A stretch of 38,682 nt of DNA from the sequence record PQ400058.1, one strand, 5' to 3'. Numbering within the stretch: the first letter of the stretch is position 1; every line of letters starts with the position of its first letter. The notes beneath the pieces were generated by a model. The model saw nothing but the letters and a program-made list of their open reading frames with translations, was not told the origin of the DNA and did no database searches. This DNA is from a phage. The position numbers and the translations under genes were made by a program. This document shows, in pieces, positions 7,321 to 38,682 of this stretch.

Positions 7321-7764
7321 TTACTTGGTTTCCTGCTTACGTTGCAGTTCACGAATAGTATCCTGTAACGCACGAATCCATGCGTCACCCTTCTGGGTCA
7401 CTGCGAGAATACGCTTAGCATCTCGGTCGTCAAGTTCGGCTCGACCATCAGGCTCGAATCCACACTGACCATCGGAGGCTCCGGTAGTTTTGACTCTGAC
7501 GCGCAGCCGCTTATTGTCGCTACGCAAATCAGAAATAATCCTATCAGTGCTCCCTTCCAGCGCGGCAAGGTCTTCTTGATACTTAGCCGATATTTCATTG
7601 AGCGCTCTTTGAGTGCTCGCCGTAGCCTCAACTCTCTTAACGTACTCATTGAGTACCTCCTGTTTCCATTTAGCGTCCATTGAGTCTGACCCTAGATGCC
7701 ATCCTAATCCGAATAGCATCCCAGCGAGAACCCAAGGGATTAGCTTACGTAAAAATTCCAGCAT
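7321..7764 (-). CDS. 18.5: Rz-like i-spanin (gp18.5)
   Basis: Track ORF trimmed to ATG 7764 (MLEFLRKLIPWVLAGMLFGLGWHLG...), GGGAGG RBS 5 nt upstream. Confidence 0.85.
   Translation of the reverse strand: MLEFLRKLIPWVLAGMLFGLGWHLGSDSMDAKWKQEVLNEYVKRVEATASTQRALNEISAKYQEDLAALEGSTDRIISDLRSDNKRLRVRVKTTGASDGQCGFEPDGRAELDDRDAKRILAVTQKGDAWIRALQDTIRELQRKQETK
7398..7649 (-). CDS. 18.7: Rz1-like o-spanin lipoprotein (gp18.7), nested in the +1 frame of 18.5
   Basis: Track ORF 83 aa MSTLRELRLRRALKERS...LICVATISGCASES (lipobox-like); lies entirely within 18.5. Confidence 0.8.
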   Translation of the reverse strand: MSTLRELRLRRALKERSMKYRLSIKKTLPRWKGALIGLFLICVATISGCASESKLPEPPMVSVDSSLMVEPNLTTEMLSVFSQ

Positions 7765-7799
7765 AATGCCTCCCGTTAACTTGCAGATTTCACGTGGGA

Positions 7800-7858
7800 T
7801 CATCTCGTGTAGACAATGACATCCATAAAGACCACTATAGGTAGTGGCCTTGAGTATA
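7800..7858 (-). promoter_or_regulatory. RNase III-type site (R18.5-like)
   Basis: CCATAAAGACCACTATAGGTAGTGGCCTTGAG element between gene 18 and 18.5. Confidence 0.4.
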
Positions 7859-8128
7859 TCACTGTAATGTGTAAATATCGTCATCTGTAAGACCGTTATC
7901 ACCGACTTTCTCTTTGTACTCTTCAAGAGCACCAGCAAGTCCACCCAAGATGTGAACATCCGGCTGCAACTTACCAATCTGGAACTTGTGTCGGTCTAAC
8001 AGTTTATTGATGGCGTTATAGAGTTGTGGAGAACGACGCTCAGGGTCCGAAAGGTCCGCAAGCATACGCTGAGCCATCGCAGTGTCCAACATCTCTAAGA
8101 ACGTAATTAGGCTCTTATCCTTTTCCAT
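7859..8128 (-). CDS. 18: Terminase small subunit / DNA maturation protein (gp18)
   Basis: ATG 8128 (MEKDKSLITFLEMLDTAMAQRM...), AGGAG 8 nt upstream; 89 aa. Confidence 0.88.
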   Translation of the reverse strand: MEKDKSLITFLEMLDTAMAQRMLADLSDPERRSPQLYNAINKLLDRHKFQIGKLQPDVHILGGLAGALEEYKEKVGDNGLTDDDIYTLQ

Positions 8129-8133
8129 ATACA

Positions 8134-8337
8134 TCACTCCTTATTGGCTTTCTTCCAGTCAATCATCTTATCGACTACCTTGGCACCAATCTGAACCACT
8201 GTGTAGGCGATAGCGGCAATATAGAACCACTCATTAAGACTCAGCCCGAAGAAAAGCCTCGCAGCACCATCAGCCACACCTGTTCCAACAATAGGTGCAG
8301 CCTTGACTAACTCGTTGTTAAAATCCAAAGACAGCAT
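8134..8337 (-). CDS. 17.5: Holin (gp17.5)
   Basis: Track ORF 67 aa MLSLDFNNELVKAAPIVGTGVADGAARLFFGLSLNEWFYIAAIAYTVVQIGAKVV... with hydrophobic segments. Confidence 0.88.
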   Translation of the reverse strand: MLSLDFNNELVKAAPIVGTGVADGAARLFFGLSLNEWFYIAAIAYTVVQIGAKVVDKMIDWKKANKE

Positions 8338-8390
8338 GTATCCTCCTTATAAGGTCCATCCGTGGACTGAATGGCTTTCCTAGGTTGTAA

Positions 8391-8915
8391 TTATTCCTCA
8401 GGCTTCTCAGGCCAGTCATAGAAAGGCAGTACACTCAGGTCTACTTTGTATACAGCAAGACGGTAAATTCGCCACGCGTTTAGGAGACCTTCTAATCCAT
8501 CCTCCCCAAGTGCCATGAAGTCAGCATACTGCTCAATCTTCTTGGAGGCCATAGAGACTAGACTAGCCTTCTGGTTCTCAAAGTATCGCGGATACCAAGT
8601 TAGCTTCTCACCATCCCACCACCACTGCATCATATTGTAACGAGAGTATTCAGCTGGGATTTCCTCAAGTTCAACAACACCAGCAGAACCCTGAACGGCT
8701 AACTCCTGAACATCCTGTTCACACTGAATTACCGAACCGTCTTTGGCATAGACAAGTTTCCATGTATCCTCACGGAATGTCTTACGTAGTTCATACCAGT
8801 CATTCCCATTCTCGTCCTTTGAGAAGCCAACTCCGTGGTCCAGAAGGTCTGCATTCTCTTTGGTGCGCTCTGGAATATAGTTTACGAAGTTCTTATAGTG
8901 GCGTAAAGTCTTCAT
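8391..8915 (-). CDS. Tail fibre assembly (Tfa-like) chaperone, 174 aa; not present in T7
   Basis: ATG 8915 with GGGGGAGGG RBS 16 nt after the gp17 stop; C-terminus ...LLNAWRIYRLAVYKVDLSVLPFYDWPEKPEE resembles the lambda Tfa C-terminus (...[29 protein letters not shown]) as recalled. Confidence 0.7.
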   Translation of the reverse strand: MKTLRHYKNFVNYIPERTKENADLLDHGVGFSKDENGNDWYELRKTFREDTWKLVYAKDGSVIQCEQDVQELAVQGSAGVVELEEIPAEYSRYNMMQWWWDGEKLTWYPRYFENQKASLVSMASKKIEQYADFMALGEDGLEGLLNAWRIYRLAVYKVDLSVLPFYDWPEKPEE

Positions 8916-8931: not shown

Positions 8932-10608
8932 TTAGTAAATATTAAAGCGTTGACCATCGTTGCGTACATACTGCATAACACGCCACTGGCAACCATCTAC
9001 CGCACCATCAGCGTTACCGTTTGTGATTCCTGTGATCACCTTACCGCCACCATCTTCTATGCCGTAAGCATTCCACAGTTGCGACCAGTTAACTCCACCC
9101 ATCGCAATGTGGTTAACGGTATTTGCAACAAGCCAGCCAGCTAGATGACCATGACCACCCCATACAGAGCCTGCAATGTTTCCGTCAGTGGACATTGCGG
9201 CACCACCTGCCTTAATCGTAGTTGGGAATTGAACCTCGCCATTTGGGTTTAGCCAAATGTCATAAGATGTCGCTTGAGATGCTTCCGGTTTCCACCGGAT
9301 TAGGCCGTTGCCGTTCGTAGAACCACCTCGAACCCATCCAATTTCTAACCCTGCATCGTAGAAACTCCAACGAGTGTTACAGACCCATCCACCTTGGGTC
9401 AAATCACCCGGACCATATGCCACCGTCTTAACGGCAGTATTGGCCTGATTAGTAACACCTAGCGGTTTGTTGAATCCTTCTACCTGCAAACCATTGTAGC
9501 AATGCATGAAGTCCCCGAAGTGCATCTCCCACGTAGCCGAATCATTAGCTTTACTTTGAACCTGAAATGGAACATGCCAGTCCCCTCTATGTGGGTGCTT
9601 AATGGCCCAAAACGTATTTGATACATATTGTCCCTCAGCAGGGTTATACTCATGTACCATCTGCCCCATAGAGCCAGCTTCGGCAGTTGCCCTCAGGGTT
9701 GAAGCACGATTAGCAATAAGTTCACCGTTAAACTTAGCAGTAGCCGCCCACGAAACAACGTGGTCTTGGCTTACTTCCTCAATGGCACCTGCAAGTGCAT
9801 TCCAGTTACCAAGTTTGTCTGCCTCCAACTTAGCGCGGTCTGCTTGCTGTTCTGCCGAATGGGCAGAGTTAGCGGATGCCGTGGCATAGTTCTCAGCGTT
9901 TACCTCAGATTGATGCGCAGCAGTAGCAGAGTTACCAGCAGATGTAGCGTATTGACCAGCCGTATTCTTGAACTGCTCGGCTTCGTCTCTGAAACCCTTG
10001 GTCTCATCACGCCACTGCTTCGTATTCGTAGCGTTAGTGCTGGACTCGTTCTTAAAGCCCTCCGCTTGATTTCTGAAAGTCTCAGCCTCATTGCGGAACT
10101 GTAGGGCCTCATTACGCGCCTGCCATGAGTTCTGGTTCATGGTCTTAAGTTGACCAAACGGAACAGCGTCACGGTCATCCACGGCGTTCGCTAGGTTCAC
10201 AATTCGACGACCACGGGCATCCAAGTGACCATCATTATTGACACCGATAGTATCCGCAGTGAGGTCACGGGCCTCTTCTGCTACGTGCATCGTTTGAATC
10301 TGAGCGACGTTAAGGTCATATGCACGGAGGATTGAACCATCCGTAAAGTCAACCAATCGGTCTGTCGTGGAGGTTACTCGACGTAACTCAATGGTCGTGT
10401 AGCCATCAGCTGTACCCCAAGCCTTGGTCAGTGAGATGGTAGTGCGAGTAGCAAAGCGGTAGTCTGTATTAATAGTAAGGACCTTTCGGTCTACGCCAAT
10501 AAGGGTTACTACTACGAACTTACGGGCTAGATACTCAAACGGGATATTAAAATCACGAGTGGAGCCGTCTAACTGGTAAGTCAAAACGGTTTTAATTACG
10601 TTAGCCAT
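8932..10608 (-). CDS. 17: Tail fibre protein gp17, 558 aa: T7-like N-terminal attachment and coiled-coil region, non-T7 distal receptor-binding region
   Basis: Track ORF MANVIKTVLTYQLDGSTRDFNIPFEYLARKF...; matches recalled T7 gp17 to about residue 265 then diverges (…HPHRGDWH…GGHGHLAGW…QRFNIY). Confidence 0.9.
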   Translation of the reverse strand: MANVIKTVLTYQLDGSTRDFNIPFEYLARKFVVVTLIGVDRKVLTINTDYRFATRTTISLTKAWGTADGYTTIELRRVTSTTDRLVDFTDGSILRAYDLNVAQIQTMHVAEEARDLTADTIGVNNDGHLDARGRRIVNLANAVDDRDAVPFGQLKTMNQNSWQARNEALQFRNEAETFRNQAEGFKNESSTNATNTKQWRDETKGFRDEAEQFKNTAGQYATSAGNSATAAHQSEVNAENYATASANSAHSAEQQADRAKLEADKLGNWNALAGAIEEVSQDHVVSWAATAKFNGELIANRASTLRATAEAGSMGQMVHEYNPAEGQYVSNTFWAIKHPHRGDWHVPFQVQSKANDSATWEMHFGDFMHCYNGLQVEGFNKPLGVTNQANTAVKTVAYGPGDLTQGGWVCNTRWSFYDAGLEIGWVRGGSTNGNGLIRWKPEASQATSYDIWLNPNGEVQFPTTIKAGGAAMSTDGNIAGSVWGGHGHLAGWLVANTVNHIAMGGVNWSQLWNAYGIEDGGGKVITGITNGNADGAVDGCQWRVMQYVRNDGQRFNIY

Positions 10609-10660
10609 TTGACCTCCTTAAAGTAAATCTAATAGACTACAGGGAGAAGATTCTTTCGTC

Positions 10661-10683
10661 TCTCCCTATAGTGAGTCGTATTA
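10661..10683 (-). promoter_or_regulatory. T7 RNAP promoter phi17
   Basis: Minus strand TAATACGACTCACTATAGGGAGA; its TAA is the stop codon of gene 16. Confidence 0.9.
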
Positions 10684-13600
10684 TTTCCTAGGTGTCTCCT
10701 TGATGTGGATACCGTTGGCCTCATAAATTTTCATAATTAGTTGCTGCGTGATAGGGTCGTTCGGAACAATCTCACGCATGGTATTAAACATCCCTGTACG
10801 AAACTCCATCTCGGTAGCCTTGTTAGGCGCTTTCAGTAGCGATACAGCATTAAGTGCCGTACCACCGACCTGCCCTGCGAACCCCAAAGCAGGAATCTGA
10901 TCACCTAGAGCACCACTAATCATACCAGTCACTTGACGACCTGTTACCGCTTTTGTGCGATCGCGTTCTTCTGGTTGCTTCGGTAGTACCGTGGAGCGTG
11001 TGTACTTATAGGTATCATCACCAAACACACCAGCGATCATATCGTAGATGCTAAGTGGCGAACCTAAGTGTGAGCTACGGGAGATAGACGCATGAGCAAT
11101 CATCTTCGGGTCTAGTGCCATCTTAAGGTACTCCTTACGTTTGTCCTCAGGTAAGGCAGCGGCCTTTAGGTGCGCCTGTCCAACGAAGTAGCCACCAGCA
11201 AGCCCACAGGAAACAATGTGAGTTAACGCTTGGTCTAACGCACGGTTGTTCTTTGTGGCCTCATAGAAGCTACGGACAAATCGAGCATTAAGCGACTTGA
11301 TAACGAAGTTCTTAAATTGCATCACCATCTTTACGCCAGCACCATACGCAACGGAATCTTGAGAGGAAATCTTATGTGGTCGCATGATTGTCTCTCCAGC
11401 CACTTTGTCAGCAAGCCTCCACAAATCCATTGTGCGTGGGTCGTAGGTGAACGCCCTTTTGTCCTTGATTGTGAACTTACCGTTAGCATCACGAGTGGTG
11501 TGGTCCCGAAATAATTGCTTGATACCATTCCACTGCTCAGGACTGATTGAGGCAGACTTAAGATAATTTGCCTTACCAAACTTGGCACCAGTCCCTGATA
11601 GCACAGCACTTGCAATATCCCCTAGCACACCCTGACGGGCTGCGTCGATAATGTAGTTTGTTGTTCCATTAAGCATTACCGTCCATGGGGAGCGGGCTGC
11701 TAACTCCTGCGTCCCGAAACGAAGAGTACCAACCACATTAGCCAACACAGCGTTGGTGTCTGTAGACTCCCTAAGTCTGCGAATGTGATCTTCACGACTC
11801 GGACGGATTAGCTGGTCTAGTTCCTTCCCGAATACCATACTGTGGAGTTCTTTAATCTCAGAGGCTCGCATTGGTTTCCTACGGTTAACCCAGTCGTTAA
11901 TCATAGGGATTCCATGAGTCACCGCAGAGACATTACCTTTGATCAACATAGCACCTATCTCCGTGAAGTTCTGGAGAGGCATATAGAAGTTCTTAGCGAA
12001 GAACGTCAGGTCATTCAGAGAGCGTAAAGCTGTCCCTAAAGCACCTTCTGGGCTACGACGGGCGCGACCAGTTAGAATCTTCACTGTATCCTTAAGAGCT
12101 TCTACTTCGCCCTTCAACTTCCCGTTGCCTTCGGCCTGCTTACTCAGTGCCATAATTTCATCCTTGAGTTCCTTGGTAGTTTTACCAGAGCTACCCATGA
12201 TAGCAATATCGCCATTTACACGACGGTCATATGCTGGCATAAGGATGCGCTGGCTGAACACTCGAATGTCATCTACTGAGAACATAGAGCCATCTGGTAA
12301 CGTGATTGGTACATCGGTGTCAAAGAGGTTACGTGCTTCCAGAAAGTTATTGTTCTCGATACCAACAAGCCCCGTGATATTCTCATCAACAATAGAAGAC
12401 GCCGAGAACTGGTCTGTATGGGAGATACCATATGCCTTGTCCATAGCATACTTCCGGACCATTTCGTGTGTTACGTCTTTAGTTGACTTAAGCCCGTTGA
12501 CTTCCATCAGGTGCTCGTCGATACGTGCCTTAACTGGTGGACGCAGATAGTATGACGCAAGGGAGCTTTCAGCGATAGCCCTCTGGAAAGCCTCTCGACT
12601 CCCCAAACGTTGAATATGAAAATTCTTCAATTGGGTGTCATACACTCGCGGAATGTATGTACCTTTGTTGCGACTGTCGGGGAAGATACTAACCGCCTTT
12701 GAATTACCAAACACAGCAGGGTTTTCCATAAGTTCACGCTTGAGGTCATAGTGACCTTTAACGTGGCGCATCAGGTCTAGCTCTTTGGGAGACAAGTTGA
12801 CCTGCATTTCAGGATGTTCGATAGCAAGAGCAATTTTACGGTCGATGAACTCAACGGCCTCTGCTTTGCTCATCTTAGGCGCACCTACTGTGAACTCAGG
12901 GTCTTTCATGACTTCCTTCATCTTATCATAGTATAGGTTCCAATCGCGGTTATCGTTGGATGATAGCCTACTATGGATATCATCAGCGGTCGAGCCGAAC
13001 TTACCGTTAGACCCTGATTCCATACCAGTTGGAGAGCGCACTAGGTCACGCGCAATGGAGCGAACTCCCGTGTTCTCAGAGCGTAGTGTCTTAAGGCCAA
13101 TCTCAGTGAACCCACCTAAGGAGATACCTCTGGCTGAACGCTCAGGATTTATCGCCTCAAACTCACTTAGTGTCTGTGGGTTCAGTGGGTTAGTGTCACT
13201 GAGGATTTGACCTTGAGGGAGGACGACTGCACCTGGCTCGGTGTCCAATGGTGCGTAGTTAACCCCACTGTACTCTCGGTCGAATTTGGTACTGTCTGTG
13301 TTCATCTTAGACATGTCCACAGAGTTGGCGTTAAAGGCAGTCTCACGGGCTTCCATACGCATCAACGGTCCGACGAACTCGTTGTTAAACTCAGCCTCAG
13401 GTTTGCTACGCCTCAATCCAGCGGCTATAGTGTCACTGATTGCAGACATTCCTGCCCCAAACACAAGGCCACCTAGTACCGCACCAGTATAATTAGCGTC
13501 TCCACCAACTATAGACGTTCGCAACCCTTCTGAGGCCATGTTAATAGCTGCACTCTCAGCACCGACAACAAGAGCCTTATTGATTAACTTAAATCCCTTA

Positions 13601-14655
13601 CCTGTTACACCAACCAACGGAACATACGATAGAGGGTCGAATGCCGCACCAATAACGCCAGCGGAAAGCTGTGCCCCGATACCTGCATCAGCTTTCTTTA
13701 GGTCATTCTCGTAGTTACGCTTAGCTAGATTGATAAGGTCATCCCAGTTCTCACCGTCACCACCAGTAACCACAGAGTAATAACTAGGAGGCAACCCACT
13801 GTTACGTAGTTTGTCCAAGTCTTCCTTGGTAGGCTGGTAGGAGTTCCAACGCGTAGGCGTGATAACATCCTTAAACACATCAAAACCATTATCGAGGCGA
13901 CCAGCACGGAAGGCCATGCCGAGGACTGAGTTGTCAATTTCTGCACTTGCAGCGTCTTTGAATCCGAAGAATATTGAGCGGTCGTCATACTCAGATAGTT
14001 CCTGTTTATGGTGGTCCCAAAAGTCAGTAGCGAATGATTTCGCTGGGGCCTCCTGCTCGATACCTTTAATGTCCAATCCAGTTGACTCAGGGATAGCATC
14101 CGTTACTTTGCGCTTCCCTTCTACCTGAATGTCTCCTAAACCAACATCAGAAGGGATACCTTTACCCTTTGGGGTGATTCCACCGAACGCTTCCAACTGA
14201 CCACTCATTGGCGACCTAGCTACATCCATGAGGTTACGTATGTAGTTACGACCCTCCTCGGAGATAGCTGAGAAGTCGCCCTTTGTGTATGCTTCAAGTT
14301 GTGGACTCCCTAAGCGTCCCTCACCTTGATTGTACGCAAGGGCAGCTTTGAGTTCATCCCCATCGAATTTACTCACCAGTCCAGCAAGGTGCTTGGCAGC
14401 AGCATCAATAGCCAACTCAGGGTTCAGTCGGTCGTCGTCTGGACCATCGGTGACTCGCAACCCCATAGCCTTAGCTGTAGCCTTGGTGAATTGCATCATG
14501 CCTAACGGTCCAGTCTTAGATTTAGCTGTTGGTTGAAACCGTGATTCTGTCCAAGCGACTTTACGTAAAAGGTCATAAGAGACCCCTGTGGCATCAGCCG
14601 CCTTCTGGAACAGACCATCATACTCACTTGGTACGTTCTTATCGTACTTATCCAT
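10681..14655 (-). CDS. 16: Internal virion (core) protein gp16 with N-terminal lytic transglycosylase domain
   Basis: Track ORF 1324 aa MDKYDKNVPSEYDGLFQKAADATGVSYDLLRKVAWTESRF...GPLGMMQFTKATAKAMG. Confidence 0.93.
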   Translation of the reverse strand: MDKYDKNVPSEYDGLFQKAADATGVSYDLLRKVAWTESRFQPTAKSKTGPLGMMQFTKATAKAMGLRVTDGPDDDRLNPELAIDAAAKHLAGLVSKFDGDELKAALAYNQGEGRLGSPQLEAYTKGDFSAISEEGRNYIRNLMDVARSPMSGQLEAFGGITPKGKGIPSDVGLGDIQVEGKRKVTDAIPESTGLDIKGIEQEAPAKSFATDFWDHHKQELSEYDDRSIFFGFKDAASAEIDNSVLGMAFRAGRLDNGFDVFKDVITPTRWNSYQPTKEDLDKLRNSGLPPSYYSVVTGGDGENWDDLINLAKRNYENDLKKADAGIGAQLSAGVIGAAFDPLSYVPLVGVTGKGFKLINKALVVGAESAAINMASEGLRTSIVGGDANYTGAVLGGLVFGAGMSAISDTIAAGLRRSKPEAEFNNEFVGPLMRMEARETAFNANSVDMSKMNTDSTKFDREYSGVNYAPLDTEPGAVVLPQGQILSDTNPLNPQTLSEFEAINPERSARGISLGGFTEIGLKTLRSENTGVRSIARDLVRSPTGMESGSNGKFGSTADDIHSRLSSNDNRDWNLYYDKMKEVMKDPEFTVGAPKMSKAEAVEFIDRKIALAIEHPEMQVNLSPKELDLMRHVKGHYDLKRELMENPAVFGNSKAVSIFPDSRNKGTYIPRVYDTQLKNFHIQRLGSREAFQRAIAESSLASYYLRPPVKARIDEHLMEVNGLKSTKDVTHEMVRKYAMDKAYGISHTDQFSASSIVDENITGLVGIENNNFLEARNLFDTDVPITLPDGSMFSVDDIRVFSQRILMPAYDRRVNGDIAIMGSSGKTTKELKDEIMALSKQAEGNGKLKGEVEALKDTVKILTGRARRSPEGALGTALRSLNDLTFFAKNFYMPLQNFTEIGAMLIKGNVSAVTHGIPMINDWVNRRKPMRASEIKELHSMVFGKELDQLIRPSREDHIRRLRESTDTNAVLANVVGTLRFGTQELAARSPWTVMLNGTTNYIIDAARQGVLGDIASAVLSGTGAKFGKANYLKSASISPEQWNGIKQLFRDHTTRDANGKFTIKDKRAFTYDPRTMDLWRLADKVAGETIMRPHKISSQDSVAYGAGVKMVMQFKNFVIKSLNARFVRSFYEATKNNRALDQALTHIVSCGLAGGYFVGQAHLKAAALPEDKRKEYLKMALDPKMIAHASISRSSHLGSPLSIYDMIAGVFGDDTYKYTRSTVLPKQPEERDRTKAVTGRQVTGMISGALGDQIPALGFAGQVGGTALNAVSLLKAPNKATEMEFRTGMFNTMREIVPNDPITQQLIMKIYEANGIHIKETPRK

Positions 14656-31217: not shown

Positions 31218-32924
<1,707 letters not shown>

Positions 32925-32986
32925 TCAAGTTAGACATGGCCTCTATAGCTTCCTCCTTGTGTTGAAAGAAAGGGAAACCGTTGTGG

Positions 32987-33009
32987 TCTCCCTTTAGTGA
33001 GTTCAATTA
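32987..33009 (-). promoter_or_regulatory. T7 RNAP promoter phi3.8-like, here driving gene 4 directly
   Basis: Minus strand TAATTGAACTCACTAAAGGGAGA followed by the CCACAACGGTTTCCC leader hairpin. Confidence 0.85.
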
Positions 33010-33010
33010 A

Positions 33011-33466
33011 TTATCCACGGTCAGAAGTGACCAGTTCGTTCTTCTCCCACCAACGCTTAAGGTCGAACGATGGGCAAGCCTTAGGTGCCACATCGTGATG
33101 TGCGCGAAGAACAGCGCCTTCGTACTTAGCCAGAAGTGTGACAAGCAGTGAGCGGAGGGATTGCATTTGGGCTGGCGTAAAGTTAGCGTCGAACTTGCCT
33201 TTATCGTCGATACCGCCTACAAGGCAGACACCAATAGAGTTGTGGTTGTAACCCTTAGCGTGAGAGCCTACAGCCATCTCATCTCGGCCTTCCTCCACAG
33301 TACCATCGCGCTTGATGATAAAGTGATATCCCACATCGAGCCAACCTTGCTCTTTGTGCCACTGGCGAATCTCACGGACACCAACATTCTGACTCGGCTT
33401 GGTAGCAGAGCAGTGAACAAAGATTGCGTCGGTAGATTCACGTTGTTTAAACTGTACACGAGCCAT
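33011..33466 (-). CDS. 3.5: Lysozyme / N-acetylmuramoyl-L-alanine amidase gp3.5
   Basis: Track ORF 151 aa MARVQFKQRESTDAIFVHCSATKPSQNVGVREIRQWHK... Confidence 0.95.
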   Translation of the reverse strand: MARVQFKQRESTDAIFVHCSATKPSQNVGVREIRQWHKEQGWLDVGYHFIIKRDGTVEEGRDEMAVGSHAKGYNHNSIGVCLVGGIDDKGKFDANFTPAQMQSLRSLLVTLLAKYEGAVLRAHHDVAPKACPSFDLKRWWEKNELVTSDRG

Positions 33467-33921
33467 TATTTCTTTCCTCCCTTCGATTGTTTCAGCTTGT
33501 CAAATGGCACCTCCTTTTTGGGTTCTTTGAGCCATTCTACAGGAATTAATTTGTCAGCAAACAGAATACCATGCTTCTCACACCATTCACCGTAACTGGT
33601 CGGAGACCCTTTGTACAGCTTGGTGCGCGAGCTTGAGAACACCAGTCGGATGTCCAGTTCAGGAAACTGTTCGCGAATCAATAAGTGTTTCTTTCGGTCG
33701 TCACTCTCCCATAAACCTTTGGTTTCAATAAAGATTCCGTTAGGCAGCAGGAAGTCTGGAGTATACACATGGTTGCTCGCAGGGACAACGTAAGGGATTT
33801 TCCACAGTTCATAGTCGAACTTAATTCCCTTACCCTCTAGCTGCTTAGAGACCTTATCTTCTAGGCCGGAACGGAATGTCCCGACCTTTCTGATACCACG
33901 CGCAGCGTATGCGCCAGCCAC
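33466..33921 (-). CDS. 3: Endonuclease I gp3 (Holliday-junction resolvase)
   Basis: Track ORF 151 aa (M)AGAYAARGIRKVGTFRSGLEDKVSK...; GTG start directly after the gp2.5 stop (TAAGTG). Confidence 0.88.
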   Translation of the reverse strand: MAGAYAARGIRKVGTFRSGLEDKVSKQLEGKGIKFDYELWKIPYVVPASNHVYTPDFLLPNGIFIETKGLWESDDRKKHLLIREQFPELDIRLVFSSSRTKLYKGSPTSYGEWCEKHGILFADKLIPVEWLKEPKKEVPFDKLKQSKGGKK

Positions 33922-34620
33922 TTAGAAGTCTCCGTCTGAGTCTTCTTCGTAAGAGCCTTCGTCGTCTTCGTCCCAGCTTTCTTCGTCGCGTGGTTTGCTC
34001 GCTTTGGCAGAACCAGAGGCAACATAGCCGTTCTCTTCAACTTCGTCAGCCCAATCGTCTTCACCACCACCAAAGGTAGCCAGTTCGACCAGCATTACGG
34101 ATTCCAGTTGCAGCTTAACGCTCGCACCTACAGCAGTGTTCCACTTGTACGGAACCAGAGAGTATTTGACTTTCAGTTTAGAGCCACCACCGATAATCGG
34201 AACGTCTTCCATCTTCTTACCTTTGGAGTCAACCACAACAAGATTGATGTGCTTGGTCTCTTTGGTCTTCTTGTCTTGGAAAGACGCGTAGCATTTGAAC
34301 TTAAAGGTAGTCGTACCGTCACCGTTATCGAAGAACGGCATGTCACCTTCATACGGTTTCAGCGGTTTCTTACCACGAGCTACCGCAGGCGGGTTCGCTT
34401 CGTATTCCTCAACGGCAGCAGCATAAGCCTCTTCGTGACACTTCACGATTTCATCGACCATGCGTTGGCAGCGCGGGTCTTTGTTGGGAATAGTCAGGTC
34501 AACTTTGTAGACACCGCGAGGGTTCCCAAAGCCACGCTCTTCGTTACCGTAGTCAGGCTTAGAGATGTAAGCGTAAGGTTCAGCAGTGCCCAGCGCAGAG
34601 GTGAAAATCTTCTTAGCCAT
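33922..34620 (-). CDS. 2.5: Single-stranded DNA-binding protein gp2.5
   Basis: ATG 34620 (MAKKIFTSALGTAEPYAYISKPDYGNEERGF...), acidic C-terminal tail ...EEDSDGDF; 232 aa. Confidence 0.93.
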   Translation of the reverse strand: MAKKIFTSALGTAEPYAYISKPDYGNEERGFGNPRGVYKVDLTIPNKDPRCQRMVDEIVKCHEEAYAAAVEEYEANPPAVARGKKPLKPYEGDMPFFDNGDGTTTFKFKCYASFQDKKTKETKHINLVVVDSKGKKMEDVPIIGGGSKLKVKYSLVPYKWNTAVGASVKLQLESVMLVELATFGGGEDDWADEVEENGYVASGSAKASKPRDEESWDEDDEGSYEEDSDGDF

Positions 34621-34665: not shown

Positions 34666-34685
34666 TCTCCCAATAGTGAGTCGTA

Positions 34686-34688
<3 letters not shown>
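34666..34688 (-). promoter_or_regulatory. T7 RNAP promoter phi2.5
   Basis: Minus strand TAATACGACTCACTATTGGGAGA; overlaps the gene 2 stop. Confidence 0.85.
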
Positions 34689-35975: not shown

Positions 35976-36995
35976 TTACATCTTCTCTTGAGGGTTGTCC
36001 TCGGTGCCACGGAAGCAGGTGAAGGAGGGGTGTCTGAGACTCCCATCGTTAGTTACCTCCATAAATCCAATCTGGCAAGCCCAGCCATTATAGTAGTCCT
36101 CGCCATGTTCTTTAACGTTAGCTGTAAATTCATCCATTAAGGCGCGAGAGATGTTATTGGCATCGACAAGACGACCAGTCTCAAGAAGCACCTTGAATCC
36201 AATTACCTTACCTTCGTTAGCAAGTCCTTCTGTTCCCCAGTTTACACCATTAATGATTCCGTCAGCTTCCTCAAGAGGCTTAAGTTTCCACCAGCCGGAC
36301 TTCTTACCGCGCTTGTAGATGCACATCGGGTCTTTCACAATGAGACCCTCATGTCCTTCTTCACGCTTCTTCTCGTACAGTTGCTGTAGTTCTACCATAT
36401 CGTAGACCTCGTAAGACTCAGCCGCTTGCCATTCGATTTCAGGGAAGTATTCCTGTAGCAGAGGCAGCATGTTCTTAACGTGTTCCTGCATGAGCAACGT
36501 CATGACATCACAGTCTTCCCCAGACTCCACGATGTGCAGAGGGAGGATAGCGTACAGTCGGACACTCAGATGTTTGGTATCCAACGCGAACTCAACCTTG
36601 GACCCCTTGAGTGGTGGTACACCGCCAACGTCGAACTCAAAGTTATTCTTGTTGAGCCACTTGGTACGCAGTAGGCCGGACCCTGTGTTAAAGTCTACGC
36701 CCTTGACCATTAGTTCCCCATCGAGCATAAAGCCATCCTTGTAGAAACAACGGTCATCGTTAAGCAGACGCTTCCAGCGAACATCAAACCCGTTTAAGTG
36801 CTCCAGTGCCGGAATCGTTTTAGATACACGAGAGAGCCAGCAACTGTTAGCTGTATTGTCTACGCAGATGTTACCGCGCACACCATCGTACTTAATGTCA
36901 GCGATAAGATACCCAGCGTTATCCAGAGCTTTCTTAATGGCAGACTCTACGAAAGATACTGCCTTGTATGGTGAAGTCTTAAAGTTAATAATCAT
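35976..36995 (-). CDS. 1.3: ATP-dependent DNA ligase gp1.3
   Basis: Track ORF 339 aa MIINFKTSPYKAVSFVESAIKKALDNAGYLIADIKYDGVRGN... (KYDGVR ligase motif I). Confidence 0.93.
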   Translation of the reverse strand: MIINFKTSPYKAVSFVESAIKKALDNAGYLIADIKYDGVRGNICVDNTANSCWLSRVSKTIPALEHLNGFDVRWKRLLNDDRCFYKDGFMLDGELMVKGVDFNTGSGLLRTKWLNKNNFEFDVGGVPPLKGSKVEFALDTKHLSVRLYAILPLHIVESGEDCDVMTLLMQEHVKNMLPLLQEYFPEIEWQAAESYEVYDMVELQQLYEKKREEGHEGLIVKDPMCIYKRGKKSGWWKLKPLEEADGIINGVNWGTEGLANEGKVIGFKVLLETGRLVDANNISRALMDEFTANVKEHGEDYYNGWACQIGFMEVTNDGSLRHPSFTCFRGTEDNPQEKM

Positions 36996-37405
36996 ATGTA
37001 TTTCCTCAGTTTGCCATTTCGTATGTAGTGTATTGTTGAAGCAGCCACATTAAGTGCCCTTGCTAGCTCCCTGCCGGAGCGAGGGTCCGTCCGTATCATA
37101 TCGACCTGCTCATTAGTTATCTTTCTAGCACCACGGCCTTTGATAGCCATGTCTCTAAGGTTGTCTGCCTGTGTGCCCTTGGTTAGATGTGCAGGATTTA
37201 CACACCACCTATTGTCACAGGAGTGTAGGACTATATCGCTCTTATTCAACTCACCGTTGAACAGAATGTACGAAGCCCTATGGGCATATATAGGCTTACC
37301 ATGCAGGCGGAACCGTCCGTAACCATTGGGCTGGATACTACCAATCCAACGCAAACAGTCACCACATGGTTCGGTCTTATTGTTGAATCGTTCTATGTCG
37401 TTCAT
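36992..37405 (-). CDS. HNH-family (homing-type) endonuclease, 137 aa; not at this locus in T7
   Basis: Track ORF MNDIERFNNKTEPCGDCLRW...HGKPIYAHRASYILFNGELNKSDIVLHSCDNRWCVNPAHL...; HNH motif; ATG 5 nt after phi1.3; stop overlaps ligase ATG (ATGA). Confidence 0.85.
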   Translation of the reverse strand: MNDIERFNNKTEPCGDCLRWIGSIQPNGYGRFRLHGKPIYAHRASYILFNGELNKSDIVLHSCDNRWCVNPAHLTKGTQADNLRDMAIKGRGARKITNEQVDMIRTDPRSGRELARALNVAASTIHYIRNGKLRKYI

Positions 37406-37432: not shown

Positions 37433-37702
37433 CTTCCAGTGCTTCATATCACTGTGAACCTTACGGAGCCATTCCGTCTGTGCATTACAGCGAACGTCTT
37501 CGTCTGACTGTTCGAAACACTTAGCGGTCAGCATTAAGCCATCCCGTAAGACCACTCTAAGTGTCTCTCCGGCGACCATCCGTCGCTGTGTAAAATCCTC
37601 ATAGCGATAAGCCTCAACTACCACATTTGCATCGTGGTCTTCTTTAAGTCGTTCGATAGCATCTTTGTATGCTGCTAGATTTCCGCTGTATAAACGTCCC
37701 AT
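37430..37702 (-). CDS. 1.2: gp1.2-like protein (host dGTPase inhibitor in T7), 90 aa
   Basis: ATG 37702 one nt after the 1.1 stop; MGRLYSGNLAAYKDAIERLKEDHD...KHWK; N-terminus and position as T7 gp1.2. Confidence 0.75.
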   Translation of the reverse strand: MGRLYSGNLAAYKDAIERLKEDHDANVVVEAYRYEDFTQRRMVAGETLRVVLRDGLMLTAKCFEQSDEDVRCNAQTEWLRKVHSDMKHWK

Positions 37703-38016: not shown

Positions 38017-38682
38017 TTACGCGAACGCGAAGTCTGACTTAAGGATGTCTTGGAGATTCAAGTTACCTTTAGCCGGAAGTGCTGGCATTTTGTCCAATTG
38101 AGACTCATGCAACTGGTCAGCGAACTGGTCATAGAAGTCAGCAAGTACATCACAAGACTCATAGGTGTCCACCATCGTTTCACGCACAGCTTTGAACAGG
38201 TTGGCAGCGTCAGCCGGAATGGTCCCGAAGGAGTCGTGAATCAGTGCAAACGATTCGATTCCATACTTCTCGTGTGCCCACACTACAGTCTTACGCAGAT
38301 GGCTACCGTCTTGGCTGTGTACAAAGTTAGGAGCGATGCCAGACTCCTGCTTGTGAGCGTCAATCTCGCTATCTTTGTTGGTGTTAATGGTCGGCTGTAA
38401 GCGGAACTGACCAAGGAACATCAGGTTCAAGCGAGTCTGAATTGGCTTCTTGTATTCCTGCCACACTGGGAACCCATCAGGAGTTACCCAATGCACAGCG
38501 CAACGCTTGCGAAGAATCTCGCCAGTCTTCTTATCTTTGACCTCAGCAGCCAGCAGCTTAGCGGCAGACTTGAGCCAGTTCATAGCCTCTACAGCGGCTA
38601 CTACAGTCACGCTCACAGCTTCCCAAATCAGTTTCGCCATGTAACCAGCAGCCTGATTCGGTTGAGTGAACATAATACCCTT
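38017..38682 (-). CDS. 1: T7-type RNA polymerase (gene 1), C-terminal 221 codons; 5' part runs off window end and resumes at window start
   Basis: Frame open from 38682 (KGIMFTQPNQAAGYMAKLIWE...) to stop TAA 38017-38019; ends ...LQDILKSDFAFA. Confidence 0.93.
   Translation of the reverse strand, partial: KGIMFTQPNQAAGYMAKLIWEAVSVTVVAAVEAMNWLKSAAKLLAAEVKDKKTGEILRKRCAVHWVTPDGFPVWQEYKKPIQTRLNLMFLGQFRLQPTINTNKDSEIDAHKQESGIAPNFVHSQDGSHLRKTVVWAHEKYGIESFALIHDSFGTIPADAANLFKAVRETMVDTYESCDVLADFYDQFADQLHESQLDKMPALPAKGNLNLQDILKSDFAFA

Follow-up and report, generated by a model that had tools for sequence, protein, structure and literature searches.

Gene 3 of the T7-like phage studied here, which encodes endonuclease I, is best explained as being translated from a GTG codon that abuts the TAA stop codon of gene 2.5, at a junction that represents an unoccupied site for HNH endonuclease genes and where initiation combines a weak Shine-Dalgarno (SD) sequence with coupling to the preceding gene; we assign this joint reading a probability of about 0.85. 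Neither the GTG start nor the missing gene 2.8 is an anomaly, since together they form the normal, already annotated layout of 13a-like phages, to which T7 is the exception. The discovery value is accordingly small, as this layout is standard for 13a-like Teseptimaviruses and already present in curated GenBank records. Nothing here points to a new kind of element, and what is added is an anatomical explanation of why T7 differs.

The window, i.e. the whole stretch of 38,682 nt that was analysed (PQ400058.1), is the complete genome of a T7-like phage in reverse-complemented and circularly permuted form. Gene 1 (RNA polymerase) is split over its two ends (1-1967 and 38017-38682, minus strand), where positions 1967-3 encode residues 1-655 and positions 38673-38017 the C-terminal part, so that the record does not begin at a physical genome end. 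The phage is a 13a-like Teseptimavirus, about 92% identical to its nearest records. The genes under study lie on the minus strand (Table 1), and all parts of the region were identified unambiguously by Pfam, PDB and BLAST comparisons. The phi2.5 promoter lies at the position annotated for it in 13a and T7, and gp2.5 is 97.8% identical to its T7 counterpart at the amino-acid level. The final codons of gene 2.5 read GAC GGA GAC TTC TAA, and plus-strand CACTTA at 33919-33924 corresponds to TAAGTG on the minus strand, with 0 nt between TAA and GTG. The statement in an earlier note on this DNA that the gene 3 GTG (33921-33919) directly follows the gp2.5 stop codon is thus correct for the minus strand.

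Table 1. Features of the 2.5-3-3.5 region (window coordinates).
Feature	Position	Strand	Evidence or remark
T7-type promoter phi2.5 (TAATACGACTCACTATTGGGAGA)	34666..34688	-	1 mismatch to T7 promoter consensus; 0 chance matches expected
Gene 2.5, single-stranded DNA-binding protein, 232 aa, ending ...DGDF-TAA	33922..34620	-	Pfam SBB_T7, 298.9 bits
Weak Shine-Dalgarno GGAG, 8 nt 5' of GTG, within Gly-Asp codons of the gp2.5 C-terminal tail	33930..33933	-	
TAA, gene 2.5 stop codon, adjoining the gene 3 start without a gap	33922..33924	-	Sequence
GTG, gene 3 start codon	33919..33921	-	Homologous to gene 3 ATG in T3-like phages and to gene 2.8 GTG in T7
Gene 3, endonuclease I (Holliday-junction resolvase), 151 aa	33466..33921	-	Pfam Phage_endo_I, 272.9 bits, full length
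Gene 3.5, amidase/lysozyme, with strong SD (GGGAGG) and ATG overlapping the gene 3 stop (TAATG)	33011..33466	-	

Judged from its sequence, the gene 3 product is a full-length orthologue of T7 endonuclease I. Its residues 1-149 match positions 1-148 of the 149 in the Phage_endo_I profile (PF05367; 272.9 bits against a cut-off of 29.1), and the alignment with the solved structure of the T7 enzyme (PDB 2PFJ, E = 8e-87) extends from residue 4 to the C-terminus. The SGLEDKV, YTPDF and ETKG motifs are all kept in this alignment, and the acidic and lysine active-site residues are retained. We take the active-site residues of T7 endonuclease I to be Glu20, Asp55, Glu65 and Lys67, with the Glu of SGLEDKV presumably equivalent to the catalytic Glu20. 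The crystallised protein reads ETAG, with Ala, at the position of ETKG in the window, which we assume to reflect a Lys67Ala substitution in that protein.

An origin of gene 3 upstream of the GTG is impossible because an in-frame TAA directly precedes it and closes the reading frame on its 5' side. The claim that no in-frame ATG occurs for over 100 codons proved to be an understatement, as the open reading frame has no internal Met codon whatsoever, and the next in-frame NTG is that of Val52, past the conserved Glu of SGLEDKV. Initiation at some other codon, such as a non-canonical ATC at ATC-10 or the internal GTG of Val52, would be in keeping with an N-terminus known from sequence only and with the lack of a gene 3 annotation in some GenBank relatives (HZ2R8). 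This is nevertheless very improbable: gp3 of T7 and T3 is homologous from residues 1-4 onwards, GGAG lies at a workable distance from the GTG, and T3-like phages as well as the related L017 carry an ATG at the homologous codon, before an identical GCTGGCGCATACGCT. A start at Val52 would also remove the conserved N-terminal third of the product, including the Glu of SGLEDKV.

The junction TAAGTGGCTGGC recurs in identical form in 17 other genomes, namely 13a, Pila, HZ2R8 and 14 IMG/VR genomes, and the 2.5-3 region is 95-97% identical to that of dozens of GenBank Teseptimaviruses. A sequencing error at TAAGTG, which the earlier note had put forward as a possible refutation, is excluded by these 17 genomes. 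More generally, the probability that TAAGTG arose by a sequencing or assembly error that removed a gene or destroyed an ATG is negligible, since the same junction was sequenced independently in all of them and no supporting evidence for such an error was found. Phage 13a (EU734174 / NC_011045) resembles the window in having an identical junction (GACGGAGACTTCTAA, then GTGGCTGGCGCATA) and no gene 2.8; its curated record places gp2.5 at 7743-8441 and gp3 at 8442-8897, i.e. with the same abutting GTG. The same type of junction is found in Serratia phage Pila and in Escherichia phages C5, N30 and CICC 80001, among others, and in Pila the same gene 3 start is annotated, with GGAG marked as the ribosome binding site. 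Over the 2.5-3 region these 13a-type records are 97% identical to the window at the nucleotide level and differ by point changes only, compared to about 92% over the whole genome.

A wider survey covered 47 loci containing both gene 2.5 and gene 3, a sample that includes near-duplicates from one clade, so that the following counts do not represent independent events. No gene is present between 2.5 and 3 in 42 of the 47 loci. TAA and GTG abut in 15 loci and TAA and ATG in one; the stop and start codons overlap as TAATG in 17 loci from T3-like and Klebsiella phages; a 2-nt spacer occurs in four (2 with ATG, 2 with GTG); four have a spacer of 45-52 nt followed by an ATG with its own strong SD; five, including T7, have a gene of about 400 nt between 2.5 and 3; and one locus is ambiguous. 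The TAATG overlap is also found in T3 itself and, according to a table of T3-like coordinates, in AP5 (PMC4283147). An exact-pattern scan of IMG/VR for the junction returned no contigs beyond those recovered earlier. Among HNH-free genomes, TAATG, TAAATG and TAAGTG are single-base events apart, and GTG start codons are routine in this group of phages (T7 genes 2.8, 6.3, 7.7, 17.5, 19 and 19.2; genes 6.3 and 19 in the window). Within the 47-locus sample, unambiguous GTG starts of gene 3 (17 loci, three sequence groups) occur only 0-2 nt from the gp2.5 stop codon, and all nine loci with a spacer of at least 45 nt or an HNH gene have an ATG behind a strong SD.

The Teetrevirus phages T3, phiYeO3-12 and AP5 share with the window the absence of any gene between 2.5 and 3, a gene 3 product beginning MAGAYAAR (GCTGGCGCATACGCT), and an SD located within the codons for the gp2.5 tail (table in PMC4283147). 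They differ from it by the one-base overlap of stop and start codons (TAATG), by the ATG start, and in having genes 2.5 and 3 in different frames.

Absence of gene 2.8 was confirmed by tblastn with T7 gp2.8, which gave no match between genes 2.5 and 3; TAA and GTG being 0 bases apart, there is no HNH open reading frame at this locus of the window. The statement that T7 (NC_001604) has gene 2.8 between these genes, and a gene 3 starting with ATG, was right (2.8 at 9857-10276, ATG at 10257). Alignment with the T7 2.5-2.8-3 region, which had been named as a check, revealed that T7 likewise has the gp2.5 tail with its SD, followed by TAA-GTG, with 98-99% amino-acid identity for gp2.5 and gp3.5. 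In T7, however, this GTG opens gene 2.8, which encodes a 139-aa HNH_3 protein, and gene 3 starts at an ATG 400 nt later, behind GGGAGG, with a 20-nt overlap with 2.8 and one Ala codon fewer. Gene 3 of T7 shares only 74% of its nucleotides, and its product 86% of its amino acids, with that of the window.

GACGGAGACTTCTAAGTGG is common to T7 and the window, after which T7 has an insert of 400 nt, then a new ATG, and from there the coding sequence of gene 3 continues with codon 2. The end of the insert reads AAAGGGAGGCGAC-ATG-GCAGGT..., and this start of gene 3 lies exactly 400 nt after the shared GTG, which places the insert between the start codon and the second codon of gene 3. Gap placement by MAFFT was ambiguous because of repeated GACGAAGAC/xTGG sequence, and was settled by direct reading and a longer pairwise alignment. 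T7 gp2.8 matches HNH_3 and the zinc loop of His-Me homing endonucleases, and the last codons of its gene (...D I R K G R...) contain the strong SD (GGGAGG) for gene 3. The HNH_3 gene in T7 takes the pre-existing SD and GTG for its own start, and supplies a new strong SD and ATG for the displaced gene 3. Gene 2.8 has been deleted in T7 and treated as a dispensable homing endonuclease (bioRxiv 10.1101/2025.09.07.674715). A literature search on the GTG start of gene 3 and on the specificity of gp2.8 retrieved only gene 2.8 deletion constructs or mentions of dispensability, and the T3-like coordinates of AP5.

HNH_3 genes were found at the same site in T7, Klebsiella phage PMBT12 (76% identity to gp2.8), L040 (74%), L035 (42%), L025 (41%) and L036 (38%). 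With T7 counted in, five of the six exceed the HNH_3 cut-off and the remaining one falls just below it. They form four groups, between which identity does not exceed 42%. In every case the gene starts at the gp2.5 stop codon or overlaps it, ends inside the start of gene 3, and provides at its end a strong SD and ATG for gene 3, of the form AAG(A/G)G(A/G)GG...ATG. By sequence divergence, at least four HNH lineages have colonised the 2.5/3 position, so that the window carries the empty allele of what, on grounds of comparative anatomy, is taken to be a homing site. Presence or absence at one precise intergenic position beside an essential or conserved gene is also characteristic of the free-standing seg and mob homing endonucleases of T4; unlike those cases, the locus in the window is the empty allele, with nothing mobile in it, and the likeness again derives from comparative anatomy. 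The locus offers a textbook-style case of a free-standing homing-endonuclease gene inserted without harm to its neighbours, by takeover of a start codon and SD and provision of replacements, with the reference phage T7 as the atypical member.

A second difference from T7 extends over gene 3 itself. Nucleotide identity between T7 and the window, as traced by a sliding comparison, is 95-100% over genes 2, 2.5 and 3.5 and 70-77% (about 74%) over gene 3. The drop spans 33466-33921 in the window and 10257-10706 in T7; its left edge coincides with the insertion point of gene 2.8, and its right edge lies some 20 nt short of the gene 3 stop codon, at the SD of gene 3.5. For gene 3 of the window, identity is 97% with 13a-like alleles, 87.5% with that of L017 and 80% with that of T3, and gene 3 of T7 reaches at most about 75% identity with every allele in the sample of relatives. 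T7 proper and vB_EcoP_SYGE1 carry 2.8 and 3 as one block, which is also present, at a roughly uniform 76-78% identity, in Salmonella phages SWJM-03 and JSS1 and in Erwinia phage FE44. The simplest reading of these sequence comparisons, suggested by the gap between about 74% identity in gene 3 and about 95% in its flanks, is that T7 gained gene 2.8 along with a foreign gene 3 allele as one cassette. This agrees with a published description in which nuclease genes of phages tend to be located where genetic exchange has its boundaries (Barth et al. 2023, PMC10448857), the likeness being a divergent block that begins at an endonuclease gene.

The opposite history, in which the lineage of the window once had gene 2.8 and lost it by precise deletion between xTGG repeats (GTGG...ATGG), the GTG being a scar of the 2.8 start, would account for the GTGG and ATGG that flank the 400-nt insert of T7, for the identity of the preceding 19 nt in T7 and the window, and for the otherwise minority status of GTG as a gene 3 start. 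We nonetheless consider it unlikely, since such a deletion is expected to leave GTGGCAGGTTACGGC (MAGYGAK) whereas the window has GTGGCTGGCGCATACGCT (MAGAYAAR), and since gene 3 of the window, only 74% identical to that of T7 between flanks of 95-96%, is nearer to the HNH-free alleles of L017 and T3. Moreover, the single-base events that separate the TAATG, TAAATG and TAAGTG junctions of HNH-free genomes speak against it. A simple deletion of gene 2.8 from T7 was rejected as the origin of the junction in view of codons 2-8, where it would yield GTGGCAGGTTAC (MAGY...) and GTGGCTGGCGCATAC (MAGAY...) is observed, and in view of the 74% identity in gene 3.

The arrangement of genes 2.5 and 3 also bears on how gene 3 is expressed. 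The nearest T7-type promoter upstream is phi2.5 (34688-34666), and scans of the 2.5/3 junction found no T7-type or sigma-70-type promoter and no terminator, so that genes 2.5, 3 and 3.5 are expected on a shared transcript. The layout of a coupled gene pair is therefore present: stop and start codons adjoin (0 nt) on one transcript, with no promoter or terminator intervening. GGAG is the only SD-like element before the GTG, and consists of the same four bases that are annotated as the ribosome binding site in phage Pila. Its predicted duplex with the anti-SD sequence (-6.6 kcal/mol) is weaker than those of the T7 gene 3 SD and of gene 3.5 (-11.3 kcal/mol for both). With a spacer of 8 nt, GGAG could allow independent initiation of gene 3. 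Folding of the RNA near this start is unremarkable (-19.3 kcal/mol, z = -0.6 relative to shuffles), so that nothing structural enforces coupling, and RNA structure as a regulatory element at the start of gene 3 was rejected. Gene 3 is probably translated at a low level, mainly by re-initiation of ribosomes that have completed gene 2.5, with help from the weak SD. In such a scheme, the transcript from phi2.5 would carry gene 2.5 together with gene 3, ribosomes that terminate on gene 2.5, itself heavily translated, would re-initiate at the adjacent GTG aided by the GGAG in the DGDF codons, and the output would be low and coupled, for a nuclease of which presumably little is required.

Genes 2.5 and 3 are in frame in the window, as in all 13a-like genomes, which raises the question of readthrough of the TAA to give a functional gp2.5-gp3 fusion. 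This was judged highly unlikely, as the frame relationship is not conserved (TAATG in T3-like and Klebsiella phages, a 2-nt spacer in others) and no structure that might promote readthrough could be seen. In E. coli, UAA followed by G terminates translation efficiently, and the protein interactions of gp2.5 require its free C-terminal Phe; both argue against a fusion.

It is tempting to speculate that the abutting TAA-GTG junction, together with a 13a-type 5' end of gene 3, is what HNH enzymes of the gp2.8 type naturally cleave and home to, and that the T7 gene 3 allele is a cleavage-immune companion. The sequence comparisons leave this a tentative proposal, with the odds somewhat against it. 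If it were true, mixed infection with T7 would lead to exclusion or conversion of the gene 3 region in 13a-like phages, the present one among them, and the endonuclease gene would also alter gene 3 dosage, a strong independent SD and ATG replacing a weak, coupled GTG.

The practical use of these findings lies in annotation, since gene 3 is sometimes missed or misnamed by automatic gene callers, plausibly owing to a GTG that abuts the gp2.5 stop codon. Among GenBank relatives that include HZ2R8 (L105, MG832642), HZP2, JB01, N30, PVN09 and WX1, the gene is unannotated in HZ2R8 and HZP2, and appears as "hypothetical protein", "lysin" or "antirepressor KilAC" in several close relatives.

A further HNH_3 endonuclease gene (137 aa, 36992-37405, minus strand) was detected in the window by a tblastn match to gp2.8 at 37357-37010. 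Its product is 39% identical to T7 gp2.8 and 38% to gp7.7. The gene lies between a phi1.3-like promoter (37432-37410), with a homologue of gene 1.2, and gene 1.3 for the ligase, with an overlap (ATGA) between the TGA of the HNH_3 gene and the ATG of 1.3; the annotations of T7 and 13a show no gene at this position. A genome without 2.8 at the 2.5/3 locus thus holds a paralogous mobile endonuclease elsewhere. Homologues of the endonuclease-like T7 genes 3.8, 5.3 and 7.7, and of genes 1.4 and 4.1, are absent from the window at the T7 positions, and the gap of about 98 nt between genes 3.5 and 4A (32913-33010) corresponds to the location of gene 3.8 in 13a. In the 13a-like genome L016 (IMGVR_UViG_638277131, 37,555 bp), a gp2.8-like HNH sequence (39% identity, 2483-2857) lies just 3' of gene 3 and occupies the expected place of gene 3.5, which could be another insertion site of the same endonuclease family.

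Most proteins of the window are 90-100% identical to those of T7. The exceptions are gp1.2 (37433-37702, minus strand; 38% identity), gp16 (10696-14655, minus strand; 66%) and the tail fibre protein gp17 (9718-10608, minus strand), which aligns with its T7 counterpart only over the N-terminal 296 residues. This partial alignment points to a receptor-binding domain, and a host range, that differ from those of T7.
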